The notes beneath the pieces are model-generated. The model was not told the DNA's origin. It worked only from the letters and a program-made list of their open reading frames with translations, and made no database searches. The translations under genes were made by a program, and so were the position numbers. A stretch of 64,000 nucleotides of DNA. Origin: an uncultured Bdellovibrionales bacterium (GTDB lineage: Bacteria; Patescibacteriota; Minisyncoccia; Moranbacterales; UBA1568). Where the stretch lies: positions 24,826-88,825 of the forward strand of contig CAYVHS010000003.1 in assembly GCA_964451495.1 (NCBI GenBank). Reading direction: 5' to 3'. Shown here in pieces: positions 1 through 7,252 of the stretch. Each line of letters opens with the position of its first letter. Position 1 is the first letter of the stretch.

Positions 1-663
1 TTCGGGCGGCAATTTCACGATATCATGCAAAACACCATCGATACGGAAACGTACGAGCATATCTTTCTCTCGGGGCTCCAGATGTATATCAGAGGCACGA
101 TTTTGATACGCATACGAAATGAGCGTATCGACAATGCGAATAATCTGAGGATCACCCGCTACATCTTTTGTGTCCCCCGTATCTTTGAAACCGGATAATA
201 TGATATCCTCAAATGCCTGTGAAACCTCTTTCTTATAAAGCGCTAATGCGTTTTCCAAATCACGTTCCGAAGCCAAAGCGACCACAACTGGTAATCCGGT
301 CTTTTTCTCAAGAAAATTACGAATCTCCAAATCGTGAGGATTGGTCATGGCCACACGCAAGCCAGACGCATCTCTAGCAAAAGCGACGATTCGATGCTTC
401 TTCGCGACAACCTCGGGAACAATCTGCAATATTTCTTCGGGTATAGATTGCTGATTCAGTACGACAAAGGGCACCTGGAGAGCATCCGCCACAAGCTTCC
501 CGAGCTCTTCATCGGTCACCAGATTGTACCAGAGTACCGCCTGCGAAAACGATCCTCCTTCGGAACGAAAACGTTCATCGGCCATTTCGAGATCTTTTTC
601 CTCGACAACACCCGCGTCCAGCAGCAACGCTCTCAATTCGTCATGAGTGAGGACATCTTTCAT
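1..663 (-). CDS. Type II secretion / type IV pilus assembly ATPase (GspE/PilB family), N-terminal part; the gene continues beyond the window start
   Basis: Reverse-strand reading from ATG at 663 stays open to position 1: MKDVLTHDELRALLLDAGVVEEKDLEMADERF...ASDIHLEPREKDMLVRFRIDGVLHDIVKLPPE. A GSPII_E N-terminal-type domain is followed by the 'ASDIH(L/I)EP...RIDGVL' entry into the ATPase core. The same motif occurs in the 39219..42245 protein. It is missing from the supplied ORF track because its stop lies outside the window. Confidence 0.75.
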   Translation of the reverse strand, partial: MKDVLTHDELRALLLDAGVVEEKDLEMADERFRSEGGSFSQAVLWYNLVTDEELGKLVADALQVPFVVLNQQSIPEEILQIVPEVVAKKHRIVAFARDASGLRVAMTNPHDLEIRNFLEKKTGLPVVVALASERDLENALALYKKEVSQAFEDIILSGFKDTGDTKDVAGDPQIIRIVDTLISYAYQNRASDIHLEPREKDMLVRFRIDGVLHDIVKLPPE

Positions 664-675
664 ACAAAAAGGGCT

Positions 676-1053
676 CTATGCCGGGAGATTACTCTTCACT
701 TTATTGATAACTTCCTGAATTGGGATATTCGCCTTGACGAGATATTCTGCAGCTCCGAGATGGAGAACTCTCTTAATATCCTCTTCTTGGCTCAGATTGG
801 ACAATACGATGACTTTAATATCTTTCAAAACTGGATCAGACTTGAGTTCGGCCAGGGTCTCAAATCCATCCTTGCCAGGCATAATCAAATCGAGTAAAAC
901 AAGTGCTGGCTTGCGAATCCGGGCTAATTTTATAGCTTCATTGCCGTTGCCCACTATCTCGGCATGAATATTTTCTTTGGCAAGTTTTGTCTTGTAAATC
1001 TTGGAATAAAACGGGTCATCCTCCACTACCAAGACAAATTTTTCTTCGATCAT
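676..1053 (-). CDS. Single-domain response regulator (CheY-like receiver)
   Basis: 125 aa. VLVVEDDPFY..., LVLLDLIMPGKDGFETL (phospho-acceptor Asp), KVIVLSNL and a Lys near the C-terminus are canonical receiver-domain landmarks. Confidence 0.85.
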   Translation of the reverse strand: MIEEKFVLVVEDDPFYSKIYKTKLAKENIHAEIVGNGNEAIKLARIRKPALVLLDLIMPGKDGFETLAELKSDPVLKDIKVIVLSNLSQEEDIKRVLHLGAAEYLVKANIPIQEVINKVKSNLPA

Positions 1054-1106: not shown

Positions 1107-3167
1107 CTAAGAGTCCGTAGACCGGAAAGGAAAGGAAATGAAAAATTTTGTACCAACATTTTCTTCGCTTTCAAACCACACTCGCGCACCCGCTTCTTCT
1201 AGATATGATTTTACCACGGAAAGCCCGAGACCACTACCGCTTGTGTCCTTACGAACAGCATTGGAAGAACGGAAAAATTTAGAAAATATCTTCGATTGAT
1301 CTTCTTTCGGAATACCTATGCCTTTATCAGCAATTGTCACCAAGACAGCCTTATCTGTCGTCTCTACGGTAATAATCACCTGTCCATCTTTTTTGTTGTA
1401 TTTGATACTATTTGCTATGAGATTCTCAAATGATTCATACAAATGTTTCGGAGGAACCATGATGGCAGCAATTGACTCTTTCGGAATATTGAGCACGATC
1501 TCGACAGACCGCTGCTCGGCCTCCGCCGACATCACCTTGATGATCTCCTGTAGAGTATATATCACATCTGTCGGCTTCTTCTCCTCTTTTCCTCTATTTT
1601 GATCAATACGAGAAACGTCCAAGAGGTCATTTACAAGAGCGACCATACGCAAGCTATTGTCATAAATCTGGCTGACTACCTGTACGGCTTCTTTGGGAAG
1701 CTTGCCGAGGTCCCCATTTAAAAGAAGTTCCATACTCCAGCGCATGCTACCAAGTGGCGTCCGCAACTGATGCGCGGCGACAGAAAGAAAGCTATCCTTC
1801 ATCTGGTCCAGCTCATGCTTTTTTGTTATGTCTTGGAAAACCGTAATAGTTCCAATAATTACATCTGATGCATCACGAATGAGAGAGCAAGTTCCAGATA
1901 CGGGAATCTTTTTATCGCCATGAATCAGGAAGGTTTTGTCAGAAAAAATACTCGCCCGTTTCTTCTTCAAAGTTTGGTCGACAAGGAAAACTCGTTGTTC
2001 ATCCGCTACAGTTTCCTGAACAAAAGAAAAGGCTTCTTTGGATAATTGATACTCAACGTCCTGAAACATTTTTCCCGATAAGACCTCGGCTGATTCATTC
2101 ATAAAAATAATCTTGCCATCAATATCAGTCGCAAACACGCCTTCACCGATAGACTTAAGGAAACGAAGGATGCTTTCTGCGCGGTTTTTTTGCTCCTCGA
2201 TACGTCCATTGGCGGCAAATAACTCGTCCGCATGTTGTATGATACGCCTCTGCACCGCCCGTTCCTCAGTGATATCCCGCTCGATCCCGACGAAGAATTT
2301 GACCTCACCCATATTGTCGAAAATCGGCGAAATACGGATATTTGCGAGATAGGTCTTTCCATCTTTCCTCTTATTCGTGAGCTCACCGGTATATCGCAGT
2401 TTTTCGACCTTAATGGTTTTCCACAGTGTTTCATAAAATGATTTGGGCATCTGCCCGCCCCACAGGGATGGTCGGAGTCCAATCATCTCCTCTTTCGAAT
2501 ACCCCGTCAATACTTCCGCGGCATGATTCGCATGCAAAATGATGCCGTGGGAATCCGTAATAATCGTATGATCGAAACTGGCGTCAACAGCTTGCTGAAA
2601 CTTCGTCAAATCTTCGGTCTTCCTTTCCAATTGCTTCGCCGATGCGCCGACATCATCAAGAATATTGAGAATAGCCGCTTTTGACCTTTCCCCTTCGACA
2701 ATTTTTTCATGCAACTCTTTCGTATGAGTTGTAATTTCATTTTCGAGGTCAGTAGTGTATTGATTGAGGTATCCGACCATGTCATTAAAAGATCGGGCTA
2801 TATCGCCAATCTCATCCGCTGAACTAATATCTGTCCTCACTGTAAAATCGCCACCCTTTATTTTCAAGGCGAAATCGCGAAGCTCCCGCAAGAGCCTTAT
2901 AACCGACCCTCCAAAAACATATCCGACTATACCAGCCAACAGACTGATACATCCAACAAGAGACCAGAATCCCACCAGGGCCATTCGTAACTGAGCGTCA
3001 GTCAAAGGTACTAAAAACTTTTCTTGAAATATCAAAACCAAGGCGGTGGTCGATAGAACGACAACAACTATGACCATCTCAATAACCAAAATGACTTTGC
3101 CTCGTAATCCTAATTTCATACTTCCCTCTAAATATCTACTTAGCCTCCATAGGTACGTTATGTTCAC
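1107..3167 (-). CDS. Sensor histidine kinase (TM - HAMP-like - 2x PAS - HisKA - HATPase_c)
   Basis: 686 aa. N-terminal TM segments, PAS-like blocks, an H-box AAHQLRTPLGSM, and a C-terminal G-box region SGSGLGLSVVKSYLEEAGARVWFESEENVGTKF. Confidence 0.85.
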   Translation of the reverse strand: MNITYLWRLSRYLEGSMKLGLRGKVILVIEMVIVVVVLSTTALVLIFQEKFLVPLTDAQLRMALVGFWSLVGCISLLAGIVGYVFGGSVIRLLRELRDFALKIKGGDFTVRTDISSADEIGDIARSFNDMVGYLNQYTTDLENEITTHTKELHEKIVEGERSKAAILNILDDVGASAKQLERKTEDLTKFQQAVDASFDHTIITDSHGIILHANHAAEVLTGYSKEEMIGLRPSLWGGQMPKSFYETLWKTIKVEKLRYTGELTNKRKDGKTYLANIRISPIFDNMGEVKFFVGIERDITEERAVQRRIIQHADELFAANGRIEEQKNRAESILRFLKSIGEGVFATDIDGKIIFMNESAEVLSGKMFQDVEYQLSKEAFSFVQETVADEQRVFLVDQTLKKKRASIFSDKTFLIHGDKKIPVSGTCSLIRDASDVIIGTITVFQDITKKHELDQMKDSFLSVAAHQLRTPLGSMRWSMELLLNGDLGKLPKEAVQVVSQIYDNSLRMVALVNDLLDVSRIDQNRGKEEKKPTDVIYTLQEIIKVMSAEAEQRSVEIVLNIPKESIAAIMVPPKHLYESFENLIANSIKYNKKDGQVIITVETTDKAVLVTIADKGIGIPKEDQSKIFSKFFRSSNAVRKDTSGSGLGLSVVKSYLEEAGARVWFESEENVGTKFFISFPFRSTDS

Positions 3168-4708
3168 TCAACCGTTCCTGTAATTTCAGATTCTGCTTCT
3201 TTAATTCAATCATTCTCAGCTCACGATCTATCATAATCTTGTTAATTTTTTCAATCTGATCAATATACTTCTGTTTCTTTTCTTCTACCAACTTGATTTC
3301 CGTGATATCGAGACAAGAACACAAGTAACCGAGGAAAGTACCTTCTGGGGAATAATGAGGAACGTTCTGCGAAAATACCCACACATATACACCATCAACA
3401 CGACGCAAACGGTATTCGCTTTTGTATGACTCATGCTTATTAAATGCCTCTTCGAATGCCCGTCGCTGACCTTTGGCATCATCTGGATGAATACTTTCCA
3501 TCCATCCCATACTCAATTGATTTTCCAGTGTCTGCCCCGTAAAATCGAGCCAAACTTTATTGAAATAAATACACTTCTTTTCCTCATCCATCACCCAAAT
3601 CATAACTGGTGCCGAATCGGCGATTGCATAGAACAATTTCTCACTTTCACGTTTCTTCGCTTCCATGTCTCGCAATGAGATGAGCATCGCATCGATACGA
3701 TTGGCGAGGCGAGAGAATTCGTCCTTTCCCGGTAGTGTAATCCGCGATTGATGTCCCGTCTCTTTACTAACTCTCTCGACCGATTCCCCAAGAGAAAAAA
3801 GTCTCCGCAATACCAGCACTTCAAAAAGACCCAGTATGACGATAACAATAAGTATGCCCACTCCGAGCAATATCTTTGTAAAAAATGCAATACTATCCTG
3901 ACCCCGTTGATAAATCGCTCGATCAAATTCTACTCGCATAACAAGAGTCTTCCCCCCATCCATATCATCCTTGATGGTATACCCTGAAACAGTCGTATCA
4001 CTTTCGCTTCTCTCTGCAATGAAAACAGTCTGGTCCTCCCCTATATACCGAGCAGCAGCAAAAGATGGGTACTGCGCAATCTCACGAAAGGGCCTCATAG
4101 TTACTGCGAAATGCGTCAGATTGGCGATTTTTGATGCCATTTCATCATCGACAAAAGTAGCAAACATGATTGTCCCTGCGCTTGGAGAGAGTCCATCGCT
4201 TGAAGTAATACTGTGAGTCACATTAATAATCACTCCATCAGAAAGAGCAATGATGCCCGAATGAGCATCCTCTCCCTCGTCATGTACCGTAAGCGCGGGA
4301 TGTGTCTGTATATAATTTTCGAAACTCTCCGAAAAAACGACTTCTTTCCCTGATCCATCGATCTGCTTCTTAAACAGAATGTCACCATTCAAATCGATAA
4401 TAACTATAAACTGTATATGGAGAAGCTCGAGCGAGATATCTTGGAGATTCACATCAATATAACTCTGATTGTGATCCTGCGCGAAAATATACGTATCGTC
4501 CCACTGTCCCCAGTCAGAAATCTTTACCGAGAGACTGTCAATCTCGTTTTGGAGGGCATCAGAAACGCGCGTCACATTCTCCTCAGCCACCTGTCGCTCT
4601 AAATCACGATAATCACTCCTCAGAACACGCGAGAGTACACCGTAGACGACGAAAAACAATATGGAAAGAATTCCAACAACAGAAAAAAGTACCTTGATGC
4701 GAAGATTC
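3136..4708 (-). CDS. Membrane PAS-domain sensor protein without a kinase domain; C-terminal coiled coil ends in a RELRMIELKK motif
   Basis: ORF 3136..4794 trimmed to ATG at 4708 (MNLRIKVLFSVVGILSILFFVV...). A TM helix, a large extracytoplasmic region, a second TM, then a PAS block (KKCIYFNKVWLDFTG...HPDD...YRLRRVDGVYVWV) and the coiled-coil tail ...IMIDRELRMIELKKQNLKLQERLSEH. It overlaps the histidine-kinase gene by 32 nt. The start codon choice is uncertain because no strong RBS is present. Confidence 0.6.
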
Positions 4709-4819
4709 ATAGTATTTTTATGTGTTTTACTTTCCCTACTCTCCTTGGCATACAGGACGAACGACATAATTATATCACAGAACCAGAAACACACTGATCA
4801 AGAGTCCGAAGCTCAGCCC

Positions 4820-4847
4820 TTAACCCTGACACACTTTATGCTATAAT
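4820..4847 (+). promoter_or_regulatory. Candidate sigma70-type promoter (TTAACC - 16/17 nt - TGcTATAAT extended -10) for the plus-strand small-ORF/symporter unit
   Basis: An extended -10 'TGcTATAAT' at 4839..4847 with a weak -35 at 4820..4825, about 70 nt upstream of the 4915 ATG. Confidence 0.35.
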
Positions 4848-4914
4848 ATACGATATATGCAGATGCGTATTTCTAAAAATACACAGAATAGGCAGTAGAC
4901 CTATTACTTACCTT

Positions 4915-5112
4915 ATGAAAAATCTTTTTCGTGCGCCAGCGATACTTGGTGTTGTTGGGTGTATATTTTTCCTCCTCATCCAATGGCCGTATTTGTCTTT
5001 TATCAGCCATAATCTCCTCGAGGAGCCGTATATGTATTGGTTAACTGTTTGGGGAATACTTATTGTGTTCCTCTTTTTATTCGCCTTTTTTATCGAACGC
5101 AATGATTCCTAG
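4915..5112 (+). CDS. Small two-TM membrane protein translationally coupled to the downstream symporter gene (accessory-subunit-like)
   Basis: 65 aa with two hydrophobic helices. Its stop codon TAG (5110..5112) overlaps the symporter start ATG (5102) in 'ATGATTCCTAG'. Small DUF4212/DUF485-type proteins commonly precede SSS-family permeases. Confidence 0.4.
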   Translation: MKNLFRAPAILGVVGCIFFLLIQWPYLSFISHNLLEEPYMYWLTVWGILIVFLFLFAFFIERNDS

Positions 5113-7252
5113 CACTATTGTACTCACTGTAGCATTGATATATTTCATCGCGCTCTTTGCTATCGCGCTCTTCGTGGAAAAAAAGAGTAGCAAAGGATTT
5201 CTTTTCACCCACAACTCTATTATTTATACGCTCACCCTGGGAATATACGCGACCGCATGGACATTTTATGGATCGATTGGCTCTGCAGCAAGCTCGAGCT
5301 TTCTCTTCCTTAGTGTGTATATCGGTCCAACACTCATGATGATTTTGGCTTATGCGATGCTTAAACGACTTGTCCAGATTAAAAGCAAATATGGCATAAC
5401 GAGTATTGCAGGCTACCTTTCCAATCGTTACGGAAAATCACAGGCGGTCGGGGTGATAGCCACACTTATCGCCCTCATCGGAGGCGTCCCTTACTTTGCG
5501 CTCCAAATCAAAGCCGTAGTGTCTTCATATACCTTTATCACCATCGGTACAACGACCGCGGTACATGGCTCTATCGAACTCCTTATCCTTTTCACCATTA
5601 TTATTTTTACCATTTTCTTTGGTTTTCGCACGCTCAGCCAAGATGAGACACATTCCGGACTCGTAATGGTTGTGGCAATACAGTCAATCGTGAAACTGAT
5701 AGCACTAGTCGGAGTCGGATTACTTGCCGTCTATTTTGTCTTCCATGGATTCGGAGACATTTTCGATACCGTTCGACAAAATGCCGACCTCCTCGAAAAA
5801 ATTAATAAATCAAAACCCTCCTATTCACTCTTCCTCTCATACTTCATCCTCTCGATGGGCGCTATCGTCCTTCTGCCACACATGTTTCATGTCATGATTG
5901 TGGAAAATACCTCAGAAAAACACATTCGAAGCAGCGTATGGATGCTCCCTATCTATCTTATCGCAATGACCATCTTTACCTTTCCTATCGCCATGGTAGG
6001 CATACTTCTCACAAAAGACGTTACGCTCACGGATATATTTACCCTGGCTATACCAGCAATACGGGGAAATGCTTGGCTCACACTCCTCGTCTTTATCGGC
6101 GGACTTTCTGCCGCATTTAGCATGATTATGATCTCGACCATTGCCATTACCACCATGGTGACCAATCATCTCGTGATTCCCATTATCAACTCAATCAAAC
6201 CGCTTACATGGATACAAAAGTTTATCCTTCAAATTCGCTGGCTCATTGTCACTCTCATCCTCGGCATCGCCTATCTTTTCGTCATTTCTATCGGGGATTC
6301 ATATATTCTCGTCCAAATAGGCATTATATCTTTCGCTGCGGCATTTCAATTCGGACCCGCTCTTATCGGCGGAATTTTTTGGCAACGAGGGAGTCGTATC
6401 GGCGCATTGGTCGGTCTGTGGAGCGGATTTGCAGTCTGGATATATACATCACTCGTCCCTGCCTTTGTACGAAGCGGTTGGATAGGACAATCTCTGCTCG
6501 ATAATGGCCCCCTAGGCATAAGCTTCCTTCGACCAGAAAATCTTTTTGGTATCACTACGATTCACCCCCTCGCAGTCACGGTACTCTTCTCTCTTCTCCT
6601 CAATGCCGGCCTCTACATCATATGCTCATACTTCTATCCCAATAATGAGACCGAACAAAAAATCGCCGATGATTTCGTTCATATTCTCGAAGAAAAGGCT
6701 TTCACTCTCGAAAACGCAGGCTACCAGAAATCGACCATACTAGTTGCACATAAAAAAGAAATTATTCAGAACATATTCAAAACGTATTTGAGCAAAGATG
6801 AAGCCCCTAGACAAGCACAAGATTGCCTGCGAGAGCTCAATCTCGATAGCGCTGAAACAATGACGCTGAGCCAACTCATACAACTGAACCGCGTGATAGA
6901 GAAAAGGATTGCTAGCTTCGTCGGCACCCCAACCGCGAGTACCATCCTCTCTCAAAACAGCCTTTTTAGCGAGAATGAGAACGCGCAACTCTCAGATATG
7001 TATACGAGGATTGCGACAGACCTAAAAATCACCCCTGAAGAATTCACACAAAAAATAAATTATTTCCTCGACAAAGAAAAAATTCTCATCGATGGAAGCA
7101 AAGCGCTGGAAGAAAAAGTGAAAGAACGCACCATGAAACTCGAAGAAGCTAACAATCAACTACAAGAATTCAATACGCTGATGGTTGGACGTGAACTCAA
7201 AATGATTGAGCTCAAGAAAGAAATCGATGATTTGAAGGCTCAAAAACAATAA
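5102..7252 (+). CDS. Solute:sodium symporter (SSS) family membrane domain fused to a ~230-aa cytoplasmic tail with an S-helix-like coiled coil; no kinase domain
   Basis: ORF 5063..7252 trimmed to ATG 5102 (MIPSTIVLTV...). About 13 TM helices follow, with SSS-like composition (GSIGSAASSSFLFLSVYIGPTLMM...). The C-terminus reads ...KVKERTMKLEEANNQLQEFNTLMVGRELKMIELKKEIDDLKAQKQ, where ERT..L..AN..LQ is an S-helix-type motif. Confidence 0.75.
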   Translation: MIPSTIVLTVALIYFIALFAIALFVEKKSSKGFLFTHNSIIYTLTLGIYATAWTFYGSIGSAASSSFLFLSVYIGPTLMMILAYAMLKRLVQIKSKYGITSIAGYLSNRYGKSQAVGVIATLIALIGGVPYFALQIKAVVSSYTFITIGTTTAVHGSIELLILFTIIIFTIFFGFRTLSQDETHSGLVMVVAIQSIVKLIALVGVGLLAVYFVFHGFGDIFDTVRQNADLLEKINKSKPSYSLFLSYFILSMGAIVLLPHMFHVMIVENTSEKHIRSSVWMLPIYLIAMTIFTFPIAMVGILLTKDVTLTDIFTLAIPAIRGNAWLTLLVFIGGLSAAFSMIMISTIAITTMVTNHLVIPIINSIKPLTWIQKFILQIRWLIVTLILGIAYLFVISIGDSYILVQIGIISFAAAFQFGPALIGGIFWQRGSRIGALVGLWSGFAVWIYTSLVPAFVRSGWIGQSLLDNGPLGISFLRPENLFGITTIHPLAVTVLFSLLLNAGLYIICSYFYPNNETEQKIADDFVHILEEKAFTLENAGYQKSTILVAHKKEIIQNIFKTYLSKDEAPRQAQDCLRELNLDSAETMTLSQLIQLNRVIEKRIASFVGTPTASTILSQNSLFSENENAQLSDMYTRIATDLKITPEEFTQKINYFLDKEKILIDGSKALEEKVKERTMKLEEANNQLQEFNTLMVGRELKMIELKKEIDDLKAQKQ

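Follow-up and report, generated by a model that had tools for sequence, protein, structure and literature searches.

A conserved C-terminal helix as a candidate coupling element between kinase-less sensors and LNILED-type histidine kinases

Genome annotations are rich in PAS, Cache and HAMP proteins without an output domain and in soluble kinases without a sensor, and the mechanism by which such proteins work is seldom known. The locus described here, which lies at one end of a 64-kb stretch of contig CAYVHS010000003.1 from an uncultured bacterium (in the following, the window), raises this question for a small group of neighboring genes. A fusion protein built on an SLC5/SSS solute symporter and a CHASE4-HAMP-PAS membrane protein both lack a kinase and are encoded beside a complete histidine kinase and a single-domain response regulator. 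How could two such sensors pass on their signal? An initial annotation had proposed that they dock as accessory sensors on the kinase or on the regulator through a shared C-terminal coiled coil. We found that this shared tail is a widespread motif and that kinases encoded next to it carry a second motif, LNILED, which was absent from that annotation; since the adjacent kinases bear it, the idea of a coupling is strengthened. The comparative genomic data strongly support the view that the two kinase-less sensors would be coupled to the adjacent kinase via their C-terminal helix, based on the conserved tail, the upstream gene position and the LNILED partner, while docking on the regulator found no support. 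The best explanation in our view, with a probability of roughly 0.6, is that the tail acts as a plug and the LNILED helix as a socket, by which separate sensors would dock in trans on one kinase.

That two kinase-less proteins share a C-terminal tail, as noticed initially, was confirmed by open reading frames (ORFs), Pfam and NCBIfam with regard to the motif, the stops and the missing output domains. The symporter fusion (716 amino acids from the ATG at 5102) consists of the SSS transporter domain, a helical linker domain, a signaling helix (S-helix) and the tail. SSF is its sole Pfam domain (E = 2.3e-7 over amino acids 60-455, above the gathering score), and neither HisKA nor HATPase_c nor any other output domain was found in it with Pfam and NCBIfam. 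The CHASE4-HAMP-PAS protein (524 amino acids from the start at 4710) is composed of CHASE4, a transmembrane segment, HAMP, PAS and the tail. Pfam identified CHASE4 (9e-30 over amino acids 80-233), PAS (5e-16) and, weakly, HAMP; the CHASE4 domain is extracytoplasmic and lies between transmembrane segments, as is typical of a CHASE4 receptor, and no kinase or other output domain was detected in Pfam and NCBIfam searches of this protein. The symporter fusion ends in ...KVKERTMKLEEANNQLQEFNTLMVGRELKMIELKKEIDDLKAQKQ (also rendered ...FNTLMVGRELKMIELKKEIDDLKAQKQ) and the CHASE4-HAMP-PAS protein in ...KINKIMIDRELRMIELKKQNLKLQERLSEHNVPMEAK (also rendered ...INKIMIDRELRMIELKKQNLKLQERLSEHNVPMEAK), each followed by its stop codon. 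Both proteins stop 8-25 residues past the pattern V-[GD]-R-E-L-[KR]-M-I-E-L-K-K, the end of the symporter fusion lying 20 residues past the start of the tail motif. In a six-frame scan of the 64 kb, the tail motif occurred exactly twice, in these two proteins, so that it is no chance match.

The tail is also conserved in relatives of both proteins. All 20 kinase-less symporter orthologs (714-745 amino acids) among the 120 best homologs listed keep a C-terminal RE[LI][KR]M.ELK; they stem from Parcubacteria-type assemblies of the candidate phyla radiation (CPR), with identities down to ~42%. The longer homologs among these 120 carry HisKA and HATPase_c, PAS or GGDEF modules, and the motif is present in none of them. 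An alignment showed that the kinase-bearing and the kinase-less group have the transporter, the helical linker and an S-helix with the ERT signature in common. After the S-helix comes FN.L.VGRELKM.ELK in the kinase-less group, at the point at which the kinase-bearing homologs start their DHp helix. Similarly, about 45 CHASE4-HAMP-PAS orthologs (499-528 amino acids, identity down to ~30%) keep the tail, four of them in a relaxed variant. Conservation in orthologs was one of the points on which the initial annotation had made its idea depend, and the motif is indeed retained in nearly all recovered kinase-less orthologs of the two proteins.

The shared ending had initially been likened to an S-helix. 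S-helices show an ERT signature at heptad positions c-d-e and are almost always located between two signaling domains (PMC1592074; Anantharaman, Balaji, Aravind 2006). The comparison holds for the symporter fusion insofar as an S-helix with ERT, in the register of a parallel coiled coil, precedes the tail: the tail arginine follows the ERT arginine by exactly 21 residues, that is, three heptads, and AlphaFold2 models S-helix and tail as a single 71-residue helix. The tail itself, however, is a distinct motif. In the symporter fusion, nothing but the tail follows the S-helix, which is therefore not placed between two domains, and the CHASE4-HAMP-PAS protein has the tail and lacks the ERT signature. 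A profile from 359 sequences delimited a tail module of 27 residues (positions -11 to +15) with the consensus E-L-E-[RK]-F-[NQ]-[KR]-L-x-V-G-R-E-L-K-M-[IV]-E-L-K-K-E-I-x-x-L, the core VGRELKMIELK of which is unlike the S-helix signature. The invariant arginine occupies a core 'd' heptad position, and a second, short hydrophobic seam (V-2, L+2, I+5) runs along another face of the helix.

To what extent is this ending used by other proteins? A 37-column profile of the tail was run in an exhaustive search of 1.84 billion representatives (50% identity clusters) and matched 12,922 clusters at E<=1e-3 and 103 at E<=1e-10, from both bacteria and archaea. The motif ends at most 35 amino acids from the C-terminus in 136 of the 146 top matches (median 14). 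When 79 tail proteins of at least 160 amino acids were compared with Pfam, 37 families were matched, and the 25 most frequent ones are all input domains or uncharacterised, without a kinase, cyclase or DNA-binding domain among them. The input families comprise PAS, HAMP, Cache, GAF, CHASE4, PocR, 4HB_MCP, CBS and a PilS-type membrane domain. In species-representative genomes, the exact tail pattern yielded at least 600 matches; among those listed are Nitrospinota, Planctomycetota, Acidobacteriota, Bacteroidota, Proteobacteria, Chloroflexi, Verrucomicrobia and Actinomycetes, as well as many CPR lineages, Methanosarcinales, Methanoperedenaceae and DPANN archaea. A minority of tail proteins (P0284, P0307, P0365, P0378, P0248) run 45-90 residues past the tail into a conserved segment, …DGIKLEEDV….

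The second motif resides in the kinase. In the window kinase, a loop of ~15 residues links two transmembrane helices, after which come HAMP, the LNILED helix, two PAS domains, HisKA and HATPase_c; given the short loop, it has essentially no external sensor of its own. Pfam confirmed its HAMP, two PAS, HisKA and HATPase_c domains and the lone receiver domain of the neighboring regulator, in line with the kinase-regulator pair that had been annotated initially. The LNILED unit of the kinase is present in one copy and is the only such motif in the window. It contains SKAAILNILDD, compared to KKAMLNILEDF and KKAMLNLLEDS in two relatives whose kinases are encoded beside tail-sensor orthologs; such kinases were found near tail-sensor orthologs at the loci L001, L003, L205 (P0148), L208 and, as a variant, L207. 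The socket consensus, L-E-x-T-Q-R-A-x-L-N-I-L-E-D-F-x-x-E-K, is found once or in a tandem array of 2-8 units, each of 21 residues, ahead of the kinase core. Many partner kinases (301-443 amino acids) are made up of just LNILED repeats, HisKA and HATPase_c; many of those encoded right after tail genes, with 314-443 amino acids, have 2-5 tandem copies of TQRAILNILEDFxxEKxRLEx directly before HisKA and HATPase_c, and the repeat has no model in Pfam or NCBIfam. In both motifs, the core presents two hydrophobic faces of the helix, and the charges are opposite (R, K, K, K in the tail versus E, D, E in LNILED), which fits a bundle of more than two helices. Eight socket repeats were counted in a 5'-truncated LNILED ORF at L119.

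The two motifs are tightly linked at the level of gene order. We examined 80 genome loci with tail genes, from ~20 bacterial phyla and also from Methanosarcinales, Methanoperedenaceae and DPANN archaea. As a rule, the next gene has the same orientation as the tail gene, and the two often overlap in ATGA; among 57 genes directly downstream, 25 encode HATPase_c and 11 a receiver domain. The pattern LN[ILMV][LM]xD was present in 16 of the 19 kinases directly downstream of tail genes compared to 1 of 95 background kinases taken from the two homolog searches (p=1e-15), and in only 1 of 198 tail proteins themselves. With a hidden Markov model of the LNILED unit, an LNILED gene was detected within 3.5 kb downstream of the tail gene at 29/55 loci and upstream at 0/43 (p=6e-10). 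In a reverse test, metagenome loci were picked solely by a degenerate DNA pattern for A.LNILEDF, and those genes were evaluated whose 5' end was complete and that had 600 nt or more of sequence upstream (n=54). A tail-bearing ORF was located directly upstream of 48 of these 54 LNILED genes and downstream of none (0/52; p=7e-24). The pairing is thus near-obligate and directional, with gaps between the genes of -36 to +132 nt and the tail 11-25 amino acids before the stop. The 39 LNILED proteins beside tail genes included 32 with HATPase_c and one GGDEF-EAL protein.

Additionally, the two motifs co-vary. In 113 non-redundant gene pairs, the tail RELK pairs with LNIL and RELR with LNLM (88:3 vs 6:10, p=5e-8, uncorrected for phylogeny), the sites concerned being tail position +3 (K or R) and LNILED position +3 (L or M). 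In a Bordetella-like metagenome bin (L037, 2110..3747, plus strand), one frame contains the tail RELRMIELK...VRY, a linker, GAF, LNLMED, PAS and HisKA; judged from the sequence, it may have arisen either by fusion of the partner genes or through loss of a stop codon. Two or three tail-sensor genes follow each other in tandem on one strand at L040 (2985..8737), L079 (5287..9902), L074, L066, L061 and L027. These tandem sensors, together with the eight-repeat ORF of L119, suggest a many-to-one wiring.

As judged from the gene contexts in close relatives of the window locus, the LNILED kinase stays linked to the sensors and to the single-domain regulator. The window itself has two tails and one socket, and its CHASE4-HAMP-PAS gene is directly followed, on the same strand, by the LNILED kinase gene. 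An LNILED-type kinase is encoded nearby in all five symporter-tail contexts for which DNA was at hand. On the P0011 contig, the genes for the symporter-tail protein, the CHASE4-PAS protein, the kinase, the receiver, PilB and PilC lie on a single strand; the regulator also follows the kinase in L003, with the same regulator-PilB-PilC order. In L001, the symporter-tail gene is followed by the LNILED kinase and the receiver, so that the symporter ortholog is co-directional with the kinase here, as on the P0011 contig. The order in L208 is PAS-tail protein, membrane protein, LNILED kinase, three receivers and symporter-tail protein; in L207, a symporter-tail and a CHASE4 protein are followed by a kinase whose motif is the variant AMPNVLEDF and then by a receiver. 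A receiver gene follows the kinase in 6/6 Parcubacteria-type contexts, and pilB follows the regulator in 3/6. One locus has recombined the two partners: in L205 (1..2520, minus strand; P0148 type, 908-914 amino acids), CHASE4, the transmembrane segment and HAMP are joined to LNILED-PAS-PAS-HisKA-HATPase. The PAS and tail of the sensor and the kinase's own membrane and HAMP part were lost, the socket was kept, and a symporter-tail gene lies 6.5 kb from the recombinant kinase. Other fused relatives (P0157, P0160, P0162) contain neither tail nor socket.

Several further loci show variations of the arrangement. The sole tail protein of 198 with a socket (P0312, 211 amino acids) has a PAS domain, then ATLNILEDVEEAR, and the tail 12 residues on; such a protein could be plug and socket at once, which hints at relay chains. 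The Planctomycetota loci L006, L022 and L024 have the tail variant RELRMIELKREINDL…PRY, and the gene that comes next encodes a kinase of 600-730 amino acids with a Tll0287-like N-terminal domain, for which only a weak LNILED-like match was found; this match may represent a divergent socket. KaiC/RecA-like ATPase genes take the place of the kinase after the tail gene in L013 (6168..6488) and L036 (6216..6983), and the tail may accordingly have other partners. A conserved protein of ~140 amino acids (…EAGVYAYWGLF; hemerythrin-like in the Pfam tally) is encoded directly after the tail sensor in L049 (6144..6566), L066 (6149..6568) and L030 (6135..6557); in L049 and L066 it sits between the tail sensor and the LNILED kinase. 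Its place is taken by a phosphonate/NMT1-type solute-binding protein in L010, L068 and L076.

From the two motifs and their gene pairing, we infer a direct helix-helix contact between tail and socket. In the window, the CHASE4-HAMP-PAS protein would report an extracytoplasmic and/or cytoplasmic ligand, and the symporter fusion would report solute transport, similarly to CbrA-type transceptors. Both would serve as detachable inputs of the window kinase, with its one LNILDD socket between HAMP and PAS. The two helices of a dimeric tail would probably pack on the dimeric coiled coil of LNILED and form a four-helix bundle, akin to a split HAMP domain, through which ligand- or transport-driven helix movements might reach the PAS and DHp modules. 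The kinase would then phosphorylate the adjacent single-domain regulator, which in its phosphorylated form may act by protein contact, plausibly on the PilB protein encoded right after it.

Several points weigh against this explanation. The window symporter gene is divergent and not directly upstream of the kinase gene, and the window kinase offers one socket for two sensors. Beyond the window, a clear LNILED gene within 3.5 kb is missing at 26 of the 55 tail loci; weak variants are present at some of these, and at others the tail gene is followed by genes for receiver-domain, KaiC-like, B12-binding, hemerythrin-like or solute-binding proteins, so that LNILED kinases are not the sole context of the tail. 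The statistics come from simple ORF calling and regular expressions, and the loci were selected by strict motif patterns and are phylogenetically non-independent. Furthermore, a common third factor bound by both motifs would give the same gene linkage, and the contact between tail and LNILED is one that we infer.

The explanation by plug and socket thus has to be compared with others. The tail could be a homodimerisation cap that ends the signaling helix, with the output taking another route, such as contacts in the membrane or control of transport, and the link to LNILED reflecting shared operon ancestry. The tail does continue the coiled-coil register of the S-helix, as seen from the spacing of the two arginines and the one modeled helix, and about half of the tail loci are without a clear LNILED neighbor. 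However, six invariant residues, one of them an arginine at a core heptad position, would not be retained over ~13,000 clusters in a plain zipper, nor would such a zipper pair in this specific and directional way with a single motif of the following gene (48/54 vs 0/52 and 16/19 vs 1/95), and sensor-less LNILED kinases would be left without an input. We therefore regard a cap as unlikely.

Alternatively, the tail might bind a partner other than the kinase, namely the single-domain regulator, PilB, or a third protein that also recognises LNILED. The constant receiver gene after the kinase in the Parcubacteria-type contexts, the three cases with pilB, and the 11 receiver-domain genes among the 57 direct followers of tail genes would be in agreement with this. 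In the reverse test, however, many contigs contained the two genes only and the pairing still reached 89%; regulators and PilB are inconsistently present beyond this lineage, and no third conserved gene emerged from the neighbor tallies. A non-kinase partner appears quite unlikely on these grounds.

A further possibility is that the tail mimics DHp helix 1, with an arginine in place of the phospho-accepting histidine (VGRELKM vs VSHELRT), and interferes with the kinase or regulator as a decoy or inhibitor. The resemblance to DHp helix 1 is superficial, and the tail arginine at +21 from the ERT arginine comes close to the histidine, which is found at the usual +20 in the kinase-bearing homolog P0078; the register is, however, off by that one residue. 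Moreover, hhalign of the tail with S-helix plus DHp helix 1 gave a probability of 1.9% with only 9 S-helix columns aligned, and the association of the tail is specific to LNILED kinases, not to kinases generally. We consider such mimicry very improbable.

The last alternative, that both genes are truncated or frameshifted histidine-kinase genes or products of assembly errors, which the initial annotation had named as a possible pitfall, can be dismissed: homologs of both proteins with HisKA and HATPase_c attached do exist, but no DHp or HATPase remnants were found, the symporter stop is just 42 nt from a convergent gene, with no downstream coding space, a complete kinase, equipped with transmembrane and HAMP segments of its own, comes after the PAS gene, length and tail are the same in dozens of orthologs down to ~30% identity, thousands of unrelated input-only proteins have the same ending, the hhalign result speaks against it as well, and the identical proteins of separate assemblies (P0001, 716 amino acids, 100% identical to the symporter fusion; P0121, 524 amino acids, identical to the CHASE4-HAMP-PAS protein) have the same stops, which excludes an assembly error or frameshift.

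Two other ideas were rejected. Recoding, i.e. read-through or frameshifting that joins sensor and kinase, does not agree with the gaps between the two genes, which differ in both frame and length (-36 to +132 nt) and are mostly ordinary ATGA overlaps. DNA binding by the basic tail in the manner of bZIP proteins does not agree with its sequence, in which the N..R spacing is unlike the bZIP signature and no basic cluster lies upstream.

The proposed coupling by plug and socket has parallels in known systems. Homologs of the symporter fusion at 40-48% identity over ~95% of its length bear the annotation Na+/proline symporter / histidine kinase, and the order of SSS/SLC5 transporter, helical linker domain and signaling helix is that of the SLC5/STAC sensor kinases CbrA, CrbS and RpuS. 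Unlike these, the window fusion has neither HisKA nor HATPase_c and ends after the tail, and its signal would leave via a separate kinase. HAMP domains are parallel four-helix bundles that relay signals into kinases. The bundle proposed for tail and LNILED would likewise comprise two helices per dimer just upstream of PAS or DHp, as the two hydrophobic seams per helix suggest; in contrast to HAMP, the helices have no sequence relationship to it, would be on separate polypeptides, and the socket can be repeated 2-8 times. In co-sensor pairs such as DctA-DcuS, BceAB-BceS and LuxP-LuxQ, a separate protein, in some cases a transporter, gives the stimulus to a kinase with little sensing of its own. 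Contacts in these pairs are case-specific and are made in the membrane or periplasm, whereas tail and LNILED would be a portable cytoplasmic helix pair common to thousands of unrelated sensors and kinases. Split histidine kinases (PMC3591291) also distribute a kinase function over two polypeptides encoded side by side; here, the split separates the input modules from a kinase core that is intact, with two dedicated motifs marking the division.

While accessory co-sensors and split kinases are already known, the portable tail/LNILED helix pair as a widespread means of sensor-kinase coupling is apparently undescribed. Neither motif has a description in Pfam-A, NCBIfam or PDB sequences, and a full-text literature search with the motif strings and related concepts, which did not extend to subscription journals, returned unrelated papers only. 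Whether the pair amounts to a universal portable plug and socket of bacteria and archaea, in which thousands of unrelated input-only sensors, among them PAS, Cache, GAF and CHASE4 proteins and SLC5 transporters, dock on LNILED kinases and sensor-less kinases with 2-8 sockets serve as hubs for several sensors encoded apart from them, is in our estimation a question with even odds. If so, many output-less sensors would turn out to be detachable kinase inputs, an unrecognised layer of two-component signaling. Provided that tail and LNILED form a docking pair, a single sequence rule would assign a cognate kinase to ~13,000 clusters of orphan sensors. It would also explain the sensor-less kinases with coiled-coil repeats and illustrate the integration of multiple inputs by one kinase, and the pair might serve as a compact natural part for modular biosensors. 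For the window, it would mean that a transporter-coupled sensor and a CHASE4 receptor jointly control type IV pili in a Parcubacteria-type (CPR) bacterium. The genomes of such bacteria are small, and surface appendages are regarded as important for their host-dependent life.

The features of the locus are listed in Table 1.

Table 1. Features of the sensor-kinase locus, given in positions of the 64-kb window.
Feature	Position	Strand	Basis or remark
pilB, 5' part (type IV pilus / type II secretion ATPase)	1..663	-	translation; Pfam MshEN 1e-16, T2SSE 7e-10
Single-domain response regulator, receiver domain only	676..1053	-	Pfam Response_reg 5e-21
Histidine kinase	1107..3119 (longest ORF from GTG 3167)	-	Pfam; ribosome-binding site
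LNILED unit (putative socket) of the kinase, GERSKAAILNILDDVGASAKQLE, between HAMP and PAS1	2625..2693	-	motif match at 2669
CHASE4-TM-HAMP-PAS protein (TM, transmembrane), kinase-less	3136..4710 (longest ORF to GTG 4794)	-	ORF, Pfam, P0121
Tail module (putative plug) of the CHASE4-HAMP-PAS protein, QIEKINKIMIDRELRMIELKKQNLKLQ	3178..3258	-	motif match at 3225; ortholog conservation
Small two-helix ORF, 65 amino acids	4915..5112	+	ORF; two hydrophobic helices
SLC5/SSS symporter fusion, kinase-less	5102..7252 (longest ORF from TTG 5063)	+	ORF, Pfam SSF, P0001
Helical bundle between transporter and S-helix	6743..7021	+	P0001 residues 548-640; located where SLC5 kinases have their STAC domain
ERT signature of the S-helix, residues 675-677	7124..7132	+	sequence KVKERTMKL; common to kinase-bearing homologs
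Tail module (putative plug) of the symporter fusion, QLQEFNTLMVGRELKMIELKKEIDDLK	7157..7237	+	motif match at 7190

The minus-strand genes follow each other tightly in the order CHASE4-HAMP-PAS protein, kinase, regulator and pilB, with the symporter gene divergent from them. As the last visible gene of this row, pilB runs off the window; it is located downstream of the sensor, kinase and regulator genes, the reverse of what had been stated initially. An overlap of 32 nt between the PAS and kinase genes, reported at the same time, is probably an artefact of ORF calling, since it depends on the longest ORF from GTG 3167. A good ribosome-binding site, AGAGGGAAG, precedes ATG 3119, which is the likely start of the kinase and leaves a gap of 16 nt to the PAS gene. 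Likewise, the starts of the symporter fusion (ATG 5102) and of the CHASE4-HAMP-PAS protein (4710) were taken from the identical proteins P0001 and P0121 and are likely to be correct.

The helical bundle of the symporter fusion can be aligned with kinase-bearing SLC5 homologs and contains an [IV]G.P.A motif. STAC domains are four-helix bundles with LGPx(x)A (PDB 5A1Q). The AlphaFold2 model of the bundle has five helices (pLDDT 75-90), and a comparison with the solved structure did not confirm the STAC fold.

Among the sigma-70-like sites of the region, the best one (TTAACC-16-TATAAT with TG, 10/12) is found in the divergent intergenic region at 4820..4847 on the plus strand, ahead of the small ORF and the symporter gene; in total, such sites are no more numerous than in shuffled sequence. 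The stop of the small ORF overlaps the symporter start by 11 nt, a placement like that of cbrX, which overlaps the start of cbrA and whose peptide co-purifies with the SLC5 domain (PMC13022988). The small ORF has no match in Pfam. It is conserved upstream of symporter orthologs in L205 (~75% identity), L001 and L207.

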